From Nitrospirota bacterium (GTDB lineage Bacteria > Nitrospirota > Thermodesulfovibrionia > Thermodesulfovibrionales > Dissulfurispiraceae): a DNA stretch of 64,000 bases. Position numbers and translations under genes: made by a program. Below, piece by piece: positions 17,993-30,622 of the stretch (positions are counted from its first letter, which is position 1; each line of letters starts with the position of its first letter). The stretch covers positions 1-64,000 of the forward strand of contig JBFMCP010000003.1 in the NCBI GenBank assembly GCA_040754455.1, read 5' to 3'. The notes beneath the pieces were generated by a model that saw only the letters and a list, made by a program, of their open reading frames with translations, had not been told where the DNA came from and did no database searches.

Positions 17993-18385
17993 TTATATTG
18001 AAGCGGGACCCTTCTCTCTCTTCTGTCTGACCGCCTTTTCGATCGTCGTCAGCAGCCCGTCAGGAGTGAAAGGCTTTTCTATATAATCGAAGGCACCGAG
18101 CTTGATTGCCTGGACCGCCGAGGTAATGGTCTGGTATCCGGTAACCATAATAACCTCGATTTCTGGCCACTCTTCTTTTACCCGCCGCAGCACTTCAATG
18201 CCGTCGATATCGGGCATCTTGAGATCGGTCAGGACAACATCAAAGGGCTCCTGTCTGAGTCTTTCGAAGCCCTCGGCAGCGCTCTGTGCCAGTGCAACCT
18301 CGTATCCTTCAGGACCAAGCAGACGGTTGCAGCTGATCCTCACGATCTCTTCGTCATCGACGACAAGAATCTTTCCTTTGCTCAT
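17993..18385 (-). CDS. Single-domain response regulator
   Basis: ILVVDDE, TDLKMP, DYIEKPF. Confidence 0.9.
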   Translation of the reverse strand: MSKGKILVVDDEEIVRISCNRLLGPEGYEVALAQSAAEGFERLRQEPFDVVLTDLKMPDIDGIEVLRRVKEEWPEIEVIMVTGYQTITSAVQAIKLGAFDYIEKPFTPDGLLTTIEKAVRQKREKGPASI

Positions 18386-19953
18386 AACGGTATCAGGGGA
18401 AGCCTTACAAAGAAGCTCGTCCCTTTCCCTACCTCGCTTTTTACTATAATATTACCACTATGGTCCTCTATTATGCCATAACTTATCGCAAGACCGAGTC
18501 CGGTGCCCTTGCCGACGGGTTTTGTGGTGAAGAAAGGCTCGAAGATCTTTGACAGGTCCTCTTCGGCAATGCCGTGTCCGGTGTCGGTAAACTCGATCTC
18601 TATGAACTCCTGATCACGCTCCTTGATCCTCCGAGTTGCAACCGTGAGCGTTCCCTTTCCCCCCATAGCATCCGCTGCATTAAGGATCATGTTCAAAAAG
18701 ACCTGCTGCAGCTGTGTGCCGCCGGCATTTACCGGGGGGATGGATTGATCGAAGTCGGTGACGATCTTGATGTCGAAGAAGTCCGCCTTATGGCTTACCA
18801 TATCGAGCGAGCCCTGCACGAGCGCATTGATGTCCACCTCGGTCTTTTCAACCGAGGCGCCGCGCGCAAAGCCGAGGAGCCCCTTGATGATCGTGGAACA
18901 GCGCTCCGCCTGTTCGATAATCGTGGCGATGTCCTGGCGCTCCTGGCTGCCCTCGGGAAATTGGCGGTGCAGCAAATGCCCGAAGGTAACGATGCCGGTG
19001 AGGGGGTTGTTGATCTCATGCGCGACACCGGCAGCCAGTCTGCCCAGGGAGGCGAGTTTTTCCGAATGCACCAGCTGCGCCTGCGCCCTCTTAATCATTT
19101 CGGTCTTTTCCTCGACCCTCTTCTCGAGCATGCGGCCCCAGTCAATGAGCTCTCTCTTTGCCCGTGAAAGATCCTCGGTCATGGCATTGAAAGAGCGCGC
19201 GAGATCGCCCATCTCATCTTTTGTATTGATCTGGACCTTATGATCGAGATCTCCTTCAGCCACCTTGTGCATGCCTTCGGAAAGCAGTTTTACCGGTATG
19301 GATACCAATCTCCAGAGAATAGCACAGAGGGTGACGGAGATGATCGCAAGGAACACGAGAACATACACCGATATGGCGAAGCTCTGCCGCTCCGTGGTTT
19401 TATCCAGAAGGGCAAGGGAAAAATCGGTCTGGACAAAGCCGAGCACCTTCTTTGACCGGGGATGGACATGGCACGACGAGACATAGCAGGCAGGCTCGTT
19501 GTAAATGGGCTGAATCACATGAAGGATTCTTGTCCCCTCAGTGTTTTTGTCGATGAACCATTTCTGGCCCAGCTCTGTTTTTCTTGTGGCATGACACGTA
19601 GTACAAACAGGTGATGCCGCAGGGATCACCGTTTTCTTTTCATCTTTAAGAGAGGAGTGGGCTATTCTGCCGGTGCAATCGAAGATACGCACTCCGGTAA
19701 TCCCCTCGGTTGAGCCCACCGCCTCGACGGTCTGCTGGATAATAAGATCCTGGGAAGTGAGCATGCCATAGCGCGTGCTCTTCTTGACATTATCGGTAAA
19801 CGAAACGCCGTAACGCACAAAGTTCTGGAGCATCTCTTTTTCCTGGTGCTTGATGAGGAAAAACCAGAACACGGTGCTCACGATGAGCATCAGCGCTCCG
19901 ATAGCCATCAGAAGTTTATCAGTCAGTGAACTGAACGGCTCTCTTCCGTGCAT
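18382..19953 (-). CDS. HAMP histidine kinase with periplasmic putative c-type heme sensor
   Basis: Two TMs flanking CTTCH and [29 protein letters not shown]. Confidence 0.88.
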
Positions 19954-20153
19954 AGATTCTTTTGGACGTCAAAACCTTCCTCGTATTCAGCTGCTCACTG
20001 CAGGTGCCGCCTGTTCAAAAAAATGACAGTGCATACCTATCTAGATTAAGCGGCTGGTTCATTTCTGTCAAGTTATGTTCCTCCGTGAGAAAAGCCTTTT
20101 CATCCGCTCCGCTCTCTGTAGACAGCTTTTCGTTGAGTAAGGTATTATTAGCA

Positions 20154-21302
20154 ATGATGCATCATAAAAAATCGCTCAAATCCCTCGCCGGCAAGCTCAT
20201 CTTCGCTATCGGCAGCCTGATGCTGGTCGTGGGATTGCTCTTTGCCTACACGTTCAACAAGCAGTACCCTAATGTCCCTCTGACCGAAGTCCTCTTTTAC
20301 GGCGGCCCCTTTGTCATCGTCATCTCTTTTGTGCTCTGCCTTATCCTCTACAATTTGGTCACCAAGCCCATCTCCTACCTGGTCGACGGCATGGATAAAT
20401 TATCAAAGGGGAACATGGATTTCCGCATCAACCTGCATACCAACGACGAAATAGGCATGCTGGCGCGCTCCTTTGATGCCATGGCAGAGGAATTGAAAGA
20501 GTACCGGGAAAAGATGGAGAACTGGACCAAAGACCTCGAAGAGGAAGTCAAGAAAAAGACCGAGGAAATCTACAAAGCGCAGGAGCAGCTGATCAATACA
20601 GAAAAACTCGCCTCCCTGGGCAGGATGGCTGCCGGTGTCGCCCATGAGATCAACAGCCCGCTTACCGGGATCGTAACCTTCGCGCATCTGATGCTGAAGC
20701 GCACCCCCCCCGAGAACAAACAGGACATCGAAGACCTGAACATCATCATTGATCAGGCGGAACGGTGCTCGAAGATCATCAAGGGGCTCCTCGGCTTTTC
20801 GAGGAAAACGGCCTCTGAAAAGAGCACTATAAGCCTCAATACGCTTATTGAGAATACCGTTGCCATGGTCCGCAACCAGGCAAAGTTCTACAATATCGTT
20901 TTCGATATCAAGCTCGACAAATCCCTCCCCGATGTCAGTGTCGATCCGAATCAGATTCAGCAGGTCTTTCTCAATCTGCTGATCAATGCTGCTGATGCCA
21001 TGGATAAGAAAGGGAGCATCGCCATCGCATCGCGGATGGTAGAGGTCGATGGCGATAAGTTCGTCGAAATGGAATTCACCGATTCGGGGCACGGCATACC
21101 CGAAGAGATACAGGGCAAGATCTTCGAGCCCTTCTTCACCACAAAGCCGACCGGCAAGGGCACCGGTCTCGGTCTTGCGGTGAGTTACGGCATCATAAAG
21201 AAGCATGGAGGGAATATCCTGGTGAAGAGCACCCCGGGACAGGGGGCGAGCTTTTTCATACGCCTGCCCGCCGCGGCAGAGGGCCTGGCGAAAACATCAT
21301 AG
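20154..21302 (+). CDS. HAMP histidine kinase lacking a periplasmic domain
   Basis: Two TMs with a short loop, [20 protein letters not shown]; likely start ATG 20154. Confidence 0.88.
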
Positions 21303-21342
21303 GATGCTGTAAGCACGGAGTGAGGAACTGCAAGGAGGAGTA

Positions 21343-21789
21343 ATGCTTACGGTCGATCCCATCGAAGGGTGCTTCCAACTCATGGGTGGGGACTTTACCA
21401 ACGCCGGCGCTGCCTCAAGCGAGTTGAAGAGCACGCTCACCAAGCTCGGCGTGGTATCGAATATCGTCCGAAGGGTCGCCATAGCGGCCTTCGAAGCTGA
21501 GATGAATGTGATCATCCATGCAGTCGCGGGGACCATGCACTATACGATCACCCCGGCGATGGTAAAAGTGGTGGTCACCGATATGGGACCGGGCATCGAG
21601 GATATCGATCTCGCCATGCAGGAGGGATATTCGACCGCACCCGACTGGGTGCGGGAGATGGGATGGGGAGCAGGCATGGGCCTCCCCAACATCAAGAAGA
21701 ATGCCGATATGTTCAAGCTCGATTCCGTCGTCGGTGAGGGGACAACGCTCGAAATCACTATTTATATAAGGGAAGATGATGAAGGTTAA
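21343..21789 (+). CDS. RsbT-like anti-sigma factor / Ser-Thr kinase
   Basis: DFTNAGAASS, FEAEMNVIIHA, DMGPGIEDIDLAMQEGYST, GAGMGLPN. Confidence 0.88.
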   Translation: MLTVDPIEGCFQLMGGDFTNAGAASSELKSTLTKLGVVSNIVRRVAIAAFEAEMNVIIHAVAGTMHYTITPAMVKVVVTDMGPGIEDIDLAMQEGYSTAPDWVREMGWGAGMGLPNIKKNADMFKLDSVVGEGTTLEITIYIREDDEG

Positions 21790-22114
21790 TGACATTGCCG
21801 AAAAAATCGGATTAGCCGTAACCGTTGCAGGCGACCTGCAGAAAAAGGTGACGGATTGCTATATCAGCGATCTCCTCTCAGATGTCATGGCGCACAGCAA
21901 AGAGGGGGCGCTCTGGGTAACGCTCCAGACGCATCCCAATACCGTTGCTGTCGCAGTGATCAAGGGCATCTCCGGAATCGTTATCACCAATGGCAGGCAA
22001 CCCGAACCCGAGACGATCAAAAAGGCAGAAGCAGAACAGGTGACCATCATGACGAGCCCCCAGACCACCTTCGAGATTGCCGGGCAGGTGTATCAGATAC
22101 TCAGAAAAAGCTAG
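21776..22114 (+). CDS. DRTGG-domain protein
   Basis: YISDLLSDVMA, WVTLQTHPN, TTFEIAG. Confidence 0.85.
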   Translation: MMKVNDIAEKIGLAVTVAGDLQKKVTDCYISDLLSDVMAHSKEGALWVTLQTHPNTVAVAVIKGISGIVITNGRQPEPETIKKAEAEQVTIMTSPQTTFEIAGQVYQILRKS

Positions 22115-22169
22115 CGCCCCTTTTTCGTCCAATGCATCCCGGAATCACCGGCGGAGGACTGATGTTCTG

Positions 22170-22910
22170 ATGAAACGATGCATCGCCGATCTGCACATCC
22201 ACACCTGTCTTTCTCCCTGTGCCGAGGTCGACATGACTCCCCGCCGTATCGTTGAGAAGGCGCGGGCACAGGGACTGGACATCATAGCCCTTTCCGATCA
22301 CAACTCCGCTGAAAATATCCAGCTCGCACTGGATCTGGCAAAGGAGGAAAATATCACCGTGCTCCCCGCCATGGAGGTGACCTCCCGTGAGGAAGCGCAT
22401 GTCCTCGCACTCTTCAGGAGCGCAGAGAGCGCGACGGCCATGCAGGAGATCGTCTACCGGGCATTGCCCGCAGGAGTCCATGACGAACAGGCCGTGGGGT
22501 ATCAACTGATCGTGAATGAGCGTGACGAGATCATGGAATTCAACAAACGACTTTTGTTCTCCGCGACCGGACTCACCGCCAGAGAGATCATTGACGCTAT
22601 CCACGCCCTCGGCGGACTTGCCATTGCCTGCCATATCGACCGGGAGCATTTCAGCGTTGTTTCCCAGCTTGGCTTCATCTCCGACGATCTTTCCTTCGAT
22701 GCCCTCGAGATATCGCGGGCCACAGGGATGGACAGGGCCCGCTCGCTGTTTTCAGCATACGCCTCTTTCCCCTGGATCACGTCATCAGACGCGCATCAGC
22801 TTGCCGATATCGGTAGCAGGACCACCGCTTTTTTTCTCAATGAACCATCATTTGAGGAAATCGCGCTGGCGTTTAAAGGTGAAAGGAAAATAGAGTGGAA
22901 CCAAGGGTAA
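22170..22910 (+). CDS. PHP-domain phosphoesterase
   Basis: ADLHIHTCLSPCA, SDHNS, HIDR, SSDAH. Confidence 0.9.
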   Translation: MKRCIADLHIHTCLSPCAEVDMTPRRIVEKARAQGLDIIALSDHNSAENIQLALDLAKEENITVLPAMEVTSREEAHVLALFRSAESATAMQEIVYRALPAGVHDEQAVGYQLIVNERDEIMEFNKRLLFSATGLTAREIIDAIHALGGLAIACHIDREHFSVVSQLGFISDDLSFDALEISRATGMDRARSLFSAYASFPWITSSDAHQLADIGSRTTAFFLNEPSFEEIALAFKGERKIEWNQG

Positions 22911-22913
22911 CCC

Positions 22914-23009
22914 CTAAATCCGAATCACGAAATCCTAAACAATTGATGCCCCATGCCGTTTTGAGCATTTGAGTTTGTTTAGAATTTTGATATTAGGATT
23001 TCGGATTTG
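22914..23009. repeat. Heptamer-repeat palindromic element (same family as 10325-10442)
   Basis: Units ctaaatc/cgaatca/cgaaatc/ctaaaca against gtttaga/attttga/tattagg/atttcgg. Confidence 0.72.
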
Positions 23010-23020
23010 ATTCATGTGAT

Positions 23021-23557
23021 ATGGAAGATCTGTCCCTACATATTCTCGATATCGCCGAAAACTCCATCGATGCGGGCGCCGGCAGGATCGAAATAGGCAT
23101 CACCGAAGATGAAGCATGCAATCTTTTTACTCTCATCATAAAAGATGACGGCAGGGGGATGGATGCCGAGACCATCGCGAAAATCAGAGATCCCTTCTTT
23201 ACCACAAAGAGCGTCAGGAGATTCGGCCTCGGCATCCCGCTCCTCGCACAGGCGGCGAAAGAGTGCAACGGCCGGTTCCTGATCACTTCAGCGCCGGGAG
23301 GGGGAACAACGGTTACCGCTGAATTCGAGCTGGACCATATCGACCGCAAACCACTGGGTGATATCGGCACTACCATGATGGTGCTCATCGCCGGGCACCC
23401 TGAGATCACGTTCATCTTTAGCTATGAAAAACATGGACTTTCCTATACCTTCGACAGCAGTGTCGTTAGCAGGGAGCTGGAAGGGATACCTATTAACCTG
23501 CCAGATGTTTTACAATTAATAAGGGATGATATAAATGAAGGTGTAAGGGGGAATTAA
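23021..23557 (+). CDS. Stand-alone HATPase_c protein
   Basis: EDLSLHILDIAENSI, DDGRGM, DPFFTT, GLGIPLL, HIDRKPLGD; no H-box dimerisation domain. Confidence 0.88.
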   Translation: MEDLSLHILDIAENSIDAGAGRIEIGITEDEACNLFTLIIKDDGRGMDAETIAKIRDPFFTTKSVRRFGLGIPLLAQAAKECNGRFLITSAPGGGTTVTAEFELDHIDRKPLGDIGTTMMVLIAGHPEITFIFSYEKHGLSYTFDSSVVSRELEGIPINLPDVLQLIRDDINEGVRGN

Positions 23558-23562
23558 TACCA

Positions 23563-23922
23563 ATGGTACGCATTCTGGTTATCGATGACGAAGATATCGT
23601 ACGGGTGTGCTGCAAGAGAACGCTTGAGCTCGAGGGGTATGAGGTGCATATCGCGAAATCCGGCAGCGAGGGATTCGAATTCCTGAAAAAGGGCACCTAT
23701 GATCTTCTCTTGATCGACCTGAAAATGCCCGGCATGGACGGTCTGGAGATGCTCCACACTATAAAGATGATACGTCCTGAGCAAAACGTCATGATCATGT
23801 CTGGCTACGACACGATCGAAAATGTGGTCGAAGCCCTCTCCTCCGGGGCAGCCCACTATCTCGAAAAACCCTTTACTCCTGAAATGCTGATCAACAGAAT
23901 AAAAGAGGTGCTTGAATCGTGA
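23563..23922 (+). CDS. Single-domain response regulator
   Basis: ILVIDDE, DLKMPGMDG, YLEKPF. Confidence 0.9.
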   Translation: MVRILVIDDEDIVRVCCKRTLELEGYEVHIAKSGSEGFEFLKKGTYDLLLIDLKMPGMDGLEMLHTIKMIRPEQNVMIMSGYDTIENVVEALSSGAAHYLEKPFTPEMLINRIKEVLES

Positions 23923-25325
23923 CCGTGGTTACCCCTCAAATCCTTATCGTTGACGATGAGGAAATCATAAGGACAAGTTGTATGAAAATCCTTGGGCCCG
24001 AAGGGTACTGCCTCGAGACCGCTGCCGACGGCACCGAAGCATTAAAAAGGCTCCAGAACAATGGAGCCTTTGACCTGGTCCTCACCGATCTCATGATGCC
24101 TGACATGACAGGGATCGACCTCCTCAAGAAGATCAAGGAGGAACAGCCCGAAACCGAAGTCATCGTTATTACCGGCTACGGAACTGTCAAGACCGCAATC
24201 GACGCATTGAAATACGGCGCCTATGACTTCATCGAAAAGCCCTTTACTCCCGAAGTGCTGCTCAACGCTGTTGCACGGTGCCTTGAACGGAAGCGCCTGT
24301 TGCTGGAAAATGTGAAGCTCAAACAGGAAATCAATGCCTTGTACAGTCTTGAAAATGTCATCGGCATCTCAAAGGAGATGCAAAAAGTTTTCACCCTCGT
24401 CGCCACTGTTGCTCCCACCGGCAGCACCGTGCTCATCACCGGAGAGAGCGGCACCGGCAAAGAGCTTATAGCGAGGGCAATTCATTACAACAGTGCCCGC
24501 CGGGAGCAGCCCTTCGTGGTCGTCGATTGCGGCACTATCCCTGAAAACCTGATGGAATCAGAGTTGTTCGGCCACACCAGAGGCTCCTATACCGGTGCGG
24601 TAACGACGGAAAAAGGCCTCCTCGAATCGGCAAACGGCGGCACCCTTTTCCTCGACGAGATCAGCAACCTCCCCCTCTCCATGCAGTCAAAACTGTTGCG
24701 GGTGCTCCAGGAACGGGAGCTCAGGGCAGTAGGGGGCAGAAAGATGCTCAAAGTCGATATTAGGTTCATTGCCGCTACGAACAGGGACCTGTCGGAAATG
24801 GTGAAGGAAGGAACCTTCAGAGAGGATTTCTTCTACCGGCTGAATGTATTCCCGATCCATATACCGCCGCTCAGAAACAGAAAGGACGACATCCCTCCCC
24901 TCGCCTATCACTTTCTGCATAAATACGGCAAGGATATCGGAAAAGGCATTGCCCATATCTCGACTGATGCAATGCGCCGACTCATCACCTACGATTGGCC
25001 CGGCAATGTACGGGAGATCGAAAATGTCATCCATCGGGCCGTCATCGTCTGCAACGGCAACACCCTAAAGCCGGAGCACATTATACTGCCGCTCGAGCAG
25101 GAGACCGATATCCCCAAAACCCTGGACGAGCTGAAAAAAAGGAAGAAAGATTTACGGTTGAAGTCCATCGAGGAGATTGAGCGGAGCTTCCTCGTCTCTG
25201 CGCTGCAGCGCAACAGCTGGAATATAAGCAGGGCAGCGCGGGATGTCGGCATGCAGCGGACCAACTTCCATACGCTGCTTAAAAAATACAGTATTGTGAA
25301 AGACAAGGGCAACGGACAGCAATAA
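23919..25325 (+). CDS. Sigma54-dependent response regulator (NtrC family)
   Basis: REC domain, GESGTGKEL, ESELFGH, GSYTGA, WPGNVRE, Fis-type HTH. Confidence 0.93.
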   Translation: MTVVTPQILIVDDEEIIRTSCMKILGPEGYCLETAADGTEALKRLQNNGAFDLVLTDLMMPDMTGIDLLKKIKEEQPETEVIVITGYGTVKTAIDALKYGAYDFIEKPFTPEVLLNAVARCLERKRLLLENVKLKQEINALYSLENVIGISKEMQKVFTLVATVAPTGSTVLITGESGTGKELIARAIHYNSARREQPFVVVDCGTIPENLMESELFGHTRGSYTGAVTTEKGLLESANGGTLFLDEISNLPLSMQSKLLRVLQERELRAVGGRKMLKVDIRFIAATNRDLSEMVKEGTFREDFFYRLNVFPIHIPPLRNRKDDIPPLAYHFLHKYGKDIGKGIAHISTDAMRRLITYDWPGNVREIENVIHRAVIVCNGNTLKPEHIILPLEQETDIPKTLDELKKRKKDLRLKSIEEIERSFLVSALQRNSWNISRAARDVGMQRTNFHTLLKKYSIVKDKGNGQQ

Positions 25326-25594: not shown

Positions 25595-25957
25595 TTATTG
25601 GCAGCGTTTTTTTCTTTTCCCGAGATACATCCAGATATTGAATCCGCAGAGTATGAGGGTCGCAATGAAGATAACGGTAGGGGTAACATCGAGATAGATG
25701 AGCTTTTCCGCATAGTAAATGATGAACGACCCTGTGTAGGCGAGGGAGGGAGCGTGCTTCATCCGGAGCCAGACTTCGAGATGGGTAAGCGGGCAGTACC
25801 AGCCGAAGAGCTGCATCATTATAGCAAAGGCAAGCCCCCCGAGATGCACAACCCTCACCATTTTGTGCTTCACTCCCCAAATAGCGCCGAAAAAGAGGAA
25901 GAGAATCCAGCAGAAATGGATGAGGACAACGATATCGGCAAGGATTTTATATATCAT
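25595..25957 (-). CDS. DUF2784-family membrane protein
   Basis: LADIVVLIHF, WYCPLTHLEVWLR, SFIIYYAEKLIY. Confidence 0.85.
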   Translation of the reverse strand: MIYKILADIVVLIHFCWILFLFFGAIWGVKHKMVRVVHLGGLAFAIMMQLFGWYCPLTHLEVWLRMKHAPSLAYTGSFIIYYAEKLIYLDVTPTVIFIATLILCGFNIWMYLGKRKKRCQ

Positions 25958-26064: not shown

Positions 26065-26102
26065 AAAAAAAACAAAACGGAAGCAGATTGCCCTGCTTCC
26101 GT
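26065..26102 (-). terminator. Rho-independent terminator of the dsbC-like gene
   Basis: ACGGAAGCAG/CTGCTTCCGT stem followed by a T-run on the minus strand. Confidence 0.75.
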
Positions 26103-26124: not shown

Positions 26125-26892
26125 TTATTTTTTATCAATCATTTCCTTTATTCTGCCCGCCTCGATATAGCCCGGCACAACCACCCCGTCGGGGAAGATC
26201 AATGCCGGCGTGCCGGTGATGTTCAGCTTCCTTGCAAGCTGAATATTCTCATCAATTGCCGTTGTCTCACATTTCGCCGGCGACATGGGCCTTTTATTGT
26301 AGGCATCTTCGAGAAGTTCCAGCGATTTCTCACATACGACCGCTTTTGATTTTCCGTAAGCATCTTTATGCATGGGAAGGGGGAAGAGCTTGATGTAAAA
26401 TGCGATATCTTTCCTCTCTGCGACCACCTTCTTCATCTCCTGATGAAGTTTCACGCAGTAGGGTCAATCAGGGTCGCTGAAGACGATGATTTTATGCTTT
26501 GCGTCCTTATCGCCCATCACCAGGGCGTCTTTCAGAGGAATCGATGCGACATCGACCTTGTTGATCTCCTGAAAGCGCTCCTGGGTGAGGTTCTTCTTTG
26601 CCTTTATATCGACAATAGACCCCGAGAAGAGATGCTTCTTCGAATAATCGACATACATGACGCCCTTTTGCCCGCCTGCCTCAATGGCCACCTCCCAGGC
26701 AGCCTTCATCGGGCTCTGCCTGACATCGAGCACCTTGAGGTTCGGCACGAGTTCCTTAAGCAGTGCCTCCGCCTCCTCTTTCTTGAGCGTATGGCACTTC
26801 GAGCAGTCCTGCCCCTTGGTCGCGAAGCCGTATGAATACGTCACCGGAGAAAATACAAATGCGGCAATGAGAAATAACAAAACCTTTCGCAT
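26125..26892 (-). CDS. Exported DsbC/DsbG-like thiol:disulfide isomerase; selenoprotein (UPYC) with N-terminal CxxCH
   Basis: ORFs 26464-26892 and 26125-26454 share a frame, joined by TGA at 26464-26466 in FSDPD-U-PYC. Also signal peptide, CSKCH, and the cis-Pro motif ITGTPALIFPDG. Confidence 0.88.
26431..26448 (-). promoter_or_regulatory. Putative bacterial SECIS element (dsbC-like gene)
   Basis: CUUCAUC-AGGA-GAUGAAG hairpin beginning 15 nt after the UGA. Confidence 0.75.
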
Positions 26893-27004
26893 CTACTCAC
26901 CTCCTTTCACTTTCATCAATACTACCACAAAAAGCTTGAATTCACAAATAAAACAGCGAGCAAGTCACGGAAGAGATCAGCGGAACGATCATCTCCTGCT
27001 TCAG

Positions 27005-27075
27005 CTGGGGAGAGAGGAATCGAACCTCTATAAGCAGATCCAAAATCTGCTGTCCTGCCTTTAGACGACTCCCCA
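27005..27075 (-). tRNA. tRNA-Gln(UUG), CCA not encoded
   Basis: TGGGGAG/CTCCCCA acceptor stem, GCAGA-TTTTGGA-TCTGC anticodon arm, AGAGG-TTCGATT-CCTCT T-arm. Confidence 0.93.
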
Positions 27076-28727: not shown

Positions 28728-29222
28728 TCACCGCACCGGCATATACGCGTACCCCTTATTCTGCAGCGCCGCGATATTCGCGAGCACGTTTTCCCCGATT
28801 CTGACAAAAGGGAGAAGGGCGCTCTCCTCGATCTTTCCCTGTTTCAGGGATATCTTACAGGTCATGAAGACCACACCGCTTGTATGCAGCTCTTTCATCT
28901 TTTCCTGGATATCCGACAGGTTCTCGATCTTTTCTCCGGCATGGCGTGTACCACCCAGGGTCTTCGCAGCGAATTTTGCCGCAGGCCCGTTAAGGGCGAC
29001 AACAAATATCGGGCGCACGCCCCGCTTCCTGAGCGTGTCGGCAGTGTGCTTTATAAGGGCAAGTTTGTTCTCAAATAATTCGCCGTTATCAACGGTAACG
29101 TCCCACACGGCCTTCACTCGTTTGAGGCCGTCGAAGTCTCCTGCCCGGACCGCAATAGGATGGAAAAGCAGAACGATAGAGAGAATGCAAAAAAGCGGCA
29201 TCATCATTTTGTATTTTTTCAT
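28728..29222 (-). CDS. Exported DsrE-family protein
   Basis: KAVWDV, VVALNGPAAKF, FMTCKISL, LQNKGYAYMP; signal peptide; SD GGAGG before ATG 29222. Confidence 0.75.
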   Translation of the reverse strand: MKKYKMMMPLFCILSIVLLFHPIAVRAGDFDGLKRVKAVWDVTVDNGELFENKLALIKHTADTLRKRGVRPIFVVALNGPAAKFAAKTLGGTRHAGEKIENLSDIQEKMKELHTSGVVFMTCKISLKQGKIEESALLPFVRIGENVLANIAALQNKGYAYMPVR

Positions 29223-29267
29223 GGACGCCTCCCTGGAGAAATGCATCGGGTTCCTTTATAAACTTTA

Positions 29268-30546: not shown

Positions 30547-30622
30547 GGGCAGTTAGCTCAGTCGGTAGAGCAGGGGCCTGAAAAGCCCCGTGTCGGGAGT
30601 TCGATTCTCTCACTGCCCACCA
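30547..30622 (+). tRNA. tRNA-Phe(GAA)
   Basis: GGGCAGT/ACTGCCC acceptor stem, GGGGC-CTGAAAA-GCCCC anticodon arm, encoded CCA; 76 nt. Confidence 0.96.

Follow-up and report, generated by a model that had tools for sequence, protein, structure and literature searches.

What is encoded at a locus where two open reading frames (ORFs) share one frame and a single TGA codon lies between them at the catalytic position of a thioredoxin motif? This question is raised by a stretch of 64,000 nucleotides from a Nitrospirota bacterium (Thermodesulfovibrionales, Dissulfurispiraceae; assembly GCA_040754455.1, contig JBFMCP010000003.1, positions 1 to 64,000), hereafter called the window. The locus lies on the minus strand of the window. 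Read with translation table 11, it gives two same-frame ORFs of 142 amino acids (26464-26892) and 109 amino acids (26125-26454). Translation of TGA as selenocysteine (Sec, U) gives a single protein of 255 residues instead, with the lone TGA at codon 143 in the context FSDPD-U-PYC. The original prediction had proposed that the two ORFs are joined by a TGA in place of the attacking cysteine, that a hairpin with a 7-bp stem and the loop AGGA follows after 15 nt, and that a signal peptide is followed by the motif CSKCH. We found each of these elements at the expected position, the leader being read by eye. From the analysis described below we conclude that this locus is very probably a stand-alone gene for a periplasmic DsbC-type thiol:disulfide isomerase/reductase with a Sec active site and, likely, a haem c.

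The first step of the argument concerns the TGA codon. We compared the locus with its homologues, which occur in 39 of 41 related genomes. In this set we analysed 53 loci with 54 homologue copies. Contigs of named genomes added 80 loci, of which 74 contained the active-site pattern and the other 6 were dropped, giving a pooled set of 128 homologues. At the position of codon 143, the 54 copies have TGA in 29 cases and TGC or TGT in 25, and the 74 contig loci have a Cys codon in 73 cases and TGA in one. The pooled set thus contains 30 TGA forms and 98 Cys forms. The alignment of TGA with Cys codons in homologues, which had been suggested as a check, is therefore observed on a broad basis, and the hairpin is conserved together with the TGA. 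At a fixed register relative to this codon, the 7-bp stem is perfect in 29 of the 30 TGA forms (the remaining one forms 6 pairs) versus 4 of the 98 Cys forms. The hairpin region that encodes LHQEMK consists of the identical 18 nt in 21 of 21 TGA forms, as compared to two of eight Cys forms. Since synonymous sites are identical in the TGA forms and only rarely so in the Cys forms, the constraint acts on the RNA and not on the protein. Compensatory changes in the stem occur in two TGA forms (L020: CTTCACC/GGTGAAG; L031: CTCCATC/GATGGAG). The loop contains G at positions 2 and 3 in 28 of the 29 TGA forms of the 54-copy set, the exception being L053 (GTGA). In the window, the hairpin starts exactly 15 nt 3' of the TGA and is present in the centroid fold. 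This distance and the G residues in the loop fit bacterial selenocysteine insertion sequence (SECIS) elements. Based on this comparison, the TGA is almost certainly decoded as selenocysteine.

We considered the simplest alternative, namely that the TGA is a true stop. The locus would then be a pseudogene, or it would consist of two genes coding for a 142-residue protein with the N-terminal domain and for a thioredoxin-domain fragment starting from GTG at 26454. This is the literal reading by table 11, and many database entries conform to it: 19 of 150 homologues (the best cluster representatives at 50% identity) end exactly at ...DP[D/E/V/S], before the TGA position, just as had been anticipated for standard gene callers. 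TGA also stops neighbouring genes. We nevertheless regard this alternative as very improbable: TGA occupies the exact catalytic codon in 30 homologues across an order, the frame downstream is open and conserved, the hairpin is conserved with TGA only, and the genome encodes the full Sec machinery. Furthermore, the second ORF would have neither a signal peptide nor the first active-site residue. Global reassignment of TGA was also considered and rejected, as TGA ends 3 of the 13 neighbouring Pfam-supported genes and is thus an ordinary stop codon in this organism.

The genome (G000, scored 100% complete) contains each of the four selenocysteine genes that the original prediction had proposed to look for. 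These are selA, a tRNA-Sec gene (selC, anticodon tca), selB, recognized by the SelB wing domain in a 639-residue frame, and two selD genes (L003, G000:C21:48405-49331; L004, G000:C37:23899-24813). Both selD genes themselves contain one in-frame TGA, in the context AG-U-A. These TGA codons are followed by a small GUCC-NUCG-GGAC hairpin that starts 13 nt past the TGA and is unlike the hairpin in the DsbC-type gene.

Two results count against selenocysteine at this codon. First, the folding energy of the 86-nt stretch around the hairpin is ordinary (z = -0.45; 65 of 200 shuffled sequences fold as well), and the hairpin is therefore supported by the comparison of homologues and not by its stability. 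Second, an Rfam scan of 26350-26520 returned no family; a chance match to a miRNA (E 0.063) remained far under the gathering score. A hairpin that matches no curated RNA family would also be compatible with readthrough of UGA without Sec-tRNA, either by near-cognate insertion of Trp or Cys or by a local recoding signal unrelated to SelB, and the identity of the inserted residue is a prediction. This alternative appears about as remote as a true stop. The position alternates only with Cys, and it does so at a redox-active site, and the genome maintains selA, selB, selC and selD, including selD genes with in-frame TGA codons of their own.

An assembly error can be eliminated as an explanation for the TGA, since the codon is unchanged in contigs from two other studies. 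A 30-kb contig from an independent metagenome study (run X3) spans the whole stretch with three differences, all of them outside the TGA codon, the hairpin and CxxCH, and a contig from a further study (run X8) spans 26340-26514 with zero differences. The concern that the TGA might be unique to this assembly is thus dispelled by both runs as well as by the homologues. In run X6, two short metagenome contigs (records 3 and 4) match only the stretch of the active site and hairpin (window 26423-26486), with 4-6 differences, and then continue into unlike sequence. These contigs look like orthologues from other organisms that share a core conserved at the nucleotide level.

After establishing how the gene is most likely read, we turned to the question as to what kind of protein it encodes. 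Pfam detects DsbC_N (PF10411; E 5.7e-12, 45.5 bits versus a cut-off of 25) and Thioredoxin_2 (PF13098; E 3.8e-22, above cut-off). The best sequence matches in the Protein Data Bank (PDB) are DsbC chains (4npb, 4.2e-20; 1eej, 6.5e-19; also 4ilf and 4i5q). These alignments begin at about residue 51 or later with an identity of about 25%, and they show correspondence at the active site, at the second Cys pair and at the Thr-Pro loop. An AlphaFold2 model calculated from a 93-sequence alignment has a mean pLDDT of 94.3 and a pTM of 0.84. A Foldseek search with this model places DsbC chains at ranks 1-9 (E ~1e-15; best 4i5q and 1eej) with DsbG afterwards. The TM-scores of the DsbC matches are only 0.47-0.58 (rmsd 6.4-8.0 Å), and a differing angle between the two domains could give such low values. 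The two Pfam domains and the DsbC fold are in agreement with the earlier proposal that one hidden gene codes for a DsbC-like protein destined for export. A PDB sequence search with residues 23-60 alone gave no match at E ≤ 10. The protein is thus best described as a diverged DsbC-fold protein with an additional N-terminal tail. From the presence of the DsbC_N domain we infer that it would form a homodimer.

A point against a plain DsbC assignment comes from NCBIfam. The best match in this collection is the DsbC equivalog NF008129, with 87.3 bits versus a cut-off of 215, and by that rule the protein is a diverged relative of DsbC and not an orthologue. The DsbG equivalog scores 46.3 bits versus a cut-off of 124, and the model for a DsbG-like selenoprotein (NF041057) is not among the nine NCBIfam families matched at E ≤ 0.01.

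The same genome encodes a second Sec-containing DsbC paralogue (L031, G000:C30:13694-14446), which is 52% identical and has a three-Cys form of the N-terminal motif (CDGDCKKCH). A third, distant DsbC-like gene (G000:C34:26593-27132) contains CPYC and has neither TGA nor CxxCH.

Selenocysteine in such a protein is not new, and the gene is a member of a known selenoprotein family. A 2026 review (PMC13188914) includes in its table a family named "Thiol:disulfide interchange protein" that is characterised by PF13098 and UxxC, and PMC1794560 records the same UxxC family in Geobacter metallireducens, G. uraniumreducens and Syntrophus aciditrophicus. A DsbG-like UxxC selenoprotein has been listed as well (PMC1088965). 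The N-terminal CxxCH motif is a different matter. We found no mention of it for the DsbC-type family in the literature searched or in database names, and a search for DsbC together with CXXCH, c-type heme or selenocysteine, judged partly by title and abstract, returned no haem-bearing DsbC. A CxxCH motif in this family is therefore apparently undescribed, and the protein would represent a new DsbC variant if haem binding were confirmed.

How well is this motif conserved? The wider family accounts for 5753 matches at E ≤ 0.001. Of the 120 closest homologues in databases, all but one (119) contain CxxCH. In an alignment of 152 sequences, both Cys residues are found in 104, and 102 of these 104 also have the His. 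The possibility that CxxCH is not conserved can thus be dismissed. Motif-bearing members come from Nitrospirota, Syntrophaceae, Geobacteraceae/Geomonas, Desulfuromonadales and one Kiloniellaceae contig; at the level of phyla, the motif is found in Nitrospirota and Desulfobacterota. The original prediction had stated that DsbC/DsbG-like proteins with one CxxCH are annotated in Geobacter. CxxCH-bearing homologues indeed exist in Geobacteraceae/Geomonas, but the names examined are only "DsbC family protein" or "Thiol:disulfide interchange protein", so the part of the statement that concerns annotation as CxxCH proteins was not confirmed. The Protein Atlas look-alikes of a natural Cys orthologue (P0002, 70% identical) are all called DsbC or thiol:disulfide interchange protein, and none has a cytochrome label.

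Two further positions vary with the motif. Lys at position 85 is found in 94 of 102 CxxCH-bearing and 13 of 50 CxxCH-lacking sequences of the 152-sequence alignment, and Glu at position 40 in 87 of 102 and 19 of 50, respectively. In 74 of the 102 CxxCH-bearing sequences a third Cys occurs four residues upstream (C-x3-C-x2-C-H), where the protein from the window has Lys (position 26). Conservation among members with CxxCH amounts to 88% for C187, 90% for C208 and 97% for P229.

An exported and conserved CxxCH motif in an organism with abundant cytochrome genes is most simply read as a haem c site. The N-terminal sequence MRKVLLFLIAAFVFSPVTYSYG begins with a basic segment, continues with a hydrophobic core and ends in small residues, and it contains no twin-arginine motif (both by eye); in the AlphaFold2 model, residues 2-13 of this region form a helix. 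The genome contains four matches to Cytochrom_C_asm, and this domain is found in all 41 related genomes. In a crude six-frame count, three or more CxxCH motifs occur in at least 42 ORFs; the largest contains 31 motifs in 957 amino acids (contig C68). As judged from these genes, multihaem cytochromes are abundant in this organism. For the attachment of haem, bacterial cytochrome c maturation systems require little in the sequence of an exported protein beyond the CxxCH motif. We therefore lean towards the view that CSKCH carries a covalent haem c, and hold this view with considerably less confidence than the assignment of selenocysteine.

Several observations weigh against a haem. The Pfam search detected no cytochrome c domain in the protein. 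The 152-sequence alignment contains no His or Met column specific to the CxxCH-bearing members, so that a distal haem ligand cannot be assigned; among the residues strongly conserved with the motif, only K85 is a candidate for this role. A haem site does not by itself account for the third Cys in most CxxCH-bearing members. The motif is also absent from 6 of the 29 TGA forms, namely from L019, L037, L039, L046, L058 and L011 (where it is degenerate, CSKGH), and one Cys form (L074) reads CSKCY. Such repeated loss marks CxxCH as an accessory, dispensable motif. Finally, CxxCH occurs in 23 of 29 TGA forms versus 22 of 25 Cys forms of the 54-copy set, and the lack of correlation implies that Sec and CxxCH may be unrelated features. 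A coupling between the two had been considered and was rejected on the basis of the same counts. Of the three Cys forms without CxxCH, two are cut at contig ends and the third is devoid of the entire N-terminal domain. One of the TGA forms without the motif, L058 (G030:C1:2087726-2088406), is a paralogue with the active site PDUPFS, in which the resolving Cys is replaced by Ser (U-x-x-S) and the hairpin is perfect.

These observations would also be accommodated by a Sec-containing DsbC in which CxxCH is a second redox dithiol, acting as a relay or as a built-in pseudo-substrate, or a metal site, with the His maintained for another reason. In addition to the missing cytochrome c domain and distal His or Met, this explanation could account for the third Cys in 74 of 102 members, which a plain haem site does not need. 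It also fits the location of the motif only about 8 residues into the predicted mature chain, where few other parts of the protein surround it; the model has a pLDDT of only 63 for residues 21-30. On the other side, nearly all sequences with both Cys also have the His (102 of 104), which a plain dithiol relay would not need. The leader is of the general secretion type, the hosts are cytochrome-rich anaerobes whose genomes all contain haem-attachment genes, and the maturation systems are lenient toward exported CxxCH. We consider a CxxCH without haem a serious possibility, though a less likely one than a covalent haem c.

How might a DsbC-type protein with both selenocysteine and haem work? Judging from the comparative evidence, UGA at codon 143 would be decoded as selenocysteine through SelB and Sec-tRNA(Sec), with the downstream hairpin as the recruiting element. 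The pre-protein would be exported by the general secretion pathway, with removal of the 22-residue signal peptide. The cytochrome c assembly system would then most likely load CSKCH near the new N-terminus with covalent haem c, for which His34 would serve as axial ligand; we assign this step somewhat better than even chances. The protein is predicted to fold like DsbC, as in the AlphaFold2 model, with a dimerisation domain, presumably in a dimer, and a thioredoxin domain that presents U143-P-Y-C146, the cis-Pro loop and the structural Cys pair. The selenolate of U143 would attack wrong disulfides in exported Cys-rich proteins, and the resulting mixed Se-S bond could be resolved by a substrate thiol, which corresponds to isomerisation, or by C146, which corresponds to reduction. 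The Se-S bond would be re-reduced by a membrane reductase of the CcdA type. The haem, if present, could pass single electrons between the periplasmic cytochrome pool and the redox centre, or it could report the redox state of this pool; this last step is speculative.

The genome content bears on the redox partners of this protein. Three DsbD_TM/CcdA-like frames of 236-257 residues are present. Searches for DsbB, VKOR and DsbD_N (the DsbD alpha domain) found none of them in this genome scored 100% complete, and DsbD_N occurs in only one of the 41 related genomes. The lack of DsbD alpha, DsbB and VKOR leaves room for a different electron route. One such route would make the protein a haem-bearing oxidase that forms disulfides, with the haem as electron exit in place of DsbB or VKOR. 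Dimeric oxidases with a DsbC fold have been described from Epsilonproteobacteria (PMC4597128, PMC4491210), and the present protein has a weak NCBIfam match to the epsilonproteobacterial "bifunctional thiol oxidoreductase" (31.5 bits versus a cut-off of 370). We consider an oxidase improbable, as the genome contains three CcdA-type importers of reductant and the best matches in both sequence and fold are DsbC isomerases. One may extrapolate to a widespread but undescribed class of periplasmic DsbC proteins that carry covalent haem c on an N-terminal tail, in many members in combination with Sec. Their haem would exchange single electrons between the pool of respiratory multihaem cytochromes and the Se-S (or S-S) centre, and disulfide editing would be driven or poised by this pool instead of DsbD/DsbB-type partners. 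A generalisation of this reach is tentative, and it is rather unlikely to be right.

The features of the gene and its surroundings are compiled in Table 1. With its own Shine-Dalgarno sequence and a terminator-like hairpin, the gene looks monocistronic. The neighbourhood is not conserved and offers no hint as to function, which is a further point against the proposed role: the tRNA-Gln gene upstream, the DUF2784 gene downstream and the nearby genes for SLT and a sigma-54 regulator recur in the closest relatives only, and the 50 ORFs that flank 19 related loci belong to unrelated housekeeping functions, without linkage to ccdA or ccs. The DUF2784 gene was detected in none of the other 52 loci by tblastn (E ≤ 1e-5), most of these loci being represented with only 500-1500 nt of flank. 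A signalling cluster in the window (18382-25325) comprises two HAMP histidine kinases, HATPase-domain proteins, a PHP-domain protein, a single-domain response regulator and a sigma-54 activator. The sigma-54 activator adjoins the DsbC-type gene also in the closest relatives L009, L011 and L018.

Table 1. Positions of the DsbC-type gene, its sequence elements and nearby genes in the window.
Feature	Position	Strand	Remarks
Whole coding sequence	26125..26892	-	255 codons and TAA stop (26127-26125); one in-frame TGA, predicted to be read as selenocysteine
Shine-Dalgarno AGGAGG	26900..26905	-	7 nt 5' of ATG (26892-26890); read from sequence
Predicted Sec-type (general secretion) signal peptide, residues 1-22	26827..26892	-	By eye: MRK, hydrophobic core, TYSYG
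CSKCH, residues 30-34, candidate covalent haem c site	26791..26805	-	Sequence and conservation
DsbC_N (dimerisation) domain, residues 39-104	26581..26778	-	Pfam; includes W66 and K85, co-conserved with CxxCH
TGA, codon 143, predicted selenocysteine codon at attacking position	26464..26466	-	Sequence and homologue alignment
Redox motif U143-P-Y-C146	26455..26466	-	Aligns to CGYC active site of solved DsbC chains
SECIS-type hairpin CTTCATC (26448-26442) / AGGA (26441-26438) / GATGAAG (26437-26431)	26431..26448	-	7-bp stem
Thioredoxin-fold catalytic domain, residues 129-251	26140..26508	-	Pfam; C187 and C208 (DsbC structural-disulfide positions), T228-P229 loop
Intrinsic terminator-like hairpin, 11 pairs, then T run	26077..26102	-	23 nt past stop
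tRNA-Gln (ttg)	27004-27075	-	Directly upstream of DsbC-type gene
tRNA-Phe (gaa)	30547-30622	+	~3.6 kb away
DUF2784 membrane protein gene	25595-25957	-	Downstream, past terminator
172-aa protein, DsrE/DsrF-like domain	28728-29246	-	N-terminal hydrophobic leader by eye; ends in TGA

The proposed function as a whole is derived from sequence comparison and a structure model, and the presence of selenium, haem and enzymatic activity is a prediction, which must be counted against it. Some consequences are nonetheless apparent. Gene callers cut this family at the TGA, and in many Nitrospirota and Desulfobacterota genomes a disulfide isomerase is therefore annotated as two broken or "hypothetical" pieces. 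If the protein does carry haem, it would be the first DsbC-type enzyme with a haem cofactor, as far as the searched literature shows. It would also connect the maintenance of protein disulfides directly with the network of periplasmic cytochromes in organisms that contain dozens of Cys-rich multihaem cytochromes and neither DsbB, VKOR nor full-length DsbD. Since natural Cys orthologues such as P0002 exist, the question of haem binding can be addressed in a standard host without selenocysteine machinery.

With class I c-type cytochromes and other single-haem CxxCH proteins the protein shares an exported CxxCH motif, which forms a short helical turn in the AlphaFold2 model (residues 30-32), and a host that encodes cytochrome c assembly genes. 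Unlike these proteins, it has no cytochrome c domain or distal ligand, and the motif is located on the short N-terminal tail of a thioredoxin-fold enzyme. Another precedent may be the fusion of Sco with cytochrome c, which reportedly combines a thioredoxin-fold redox protein with haem c and exchanges electrons between the haem and a Cys pair. This fusion is said to contain a complete cytochrome c domain and a CxxxC copper site, and no selenium.

With the known UxxC selenoproteins, the protein has in common the PF13098 domain, Sec as the first residue of UxxC, the existence of Cys homologues and an occurrence in anaerobic lineages of the Deltaproteobacteria type. We assign it to this family by domain and motif and not by alignment to an exemplar. 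It differs in that the passages describing the family in the sources cited above are silent on an N-terminal CxxCH, and in that the present copy comes from Nitrospirota (Thermodesulfovibrionales). The DsbG-like selenoprotein (NF041057) and E. coli DsbG belong to the same superfamily, and DsbG structures are among the fold matches, but the matches to DsbC are stronger throughout. With DsbC of the E. coli type (1eej, 4i5q, 4npb), the protein shares the whole-chain fold, the combination of DsbC_N and a thioredoxin fold, the place of the active site, the structural Cys pair and the Thr-Pro loop. It differs from these enzymes in the predicted use of Sec in place of the attacking Cys and in an N-terminal extension with CxxCH, and the present genome yielded no DsbD alpha, the domain that commonly serves as their reductant.

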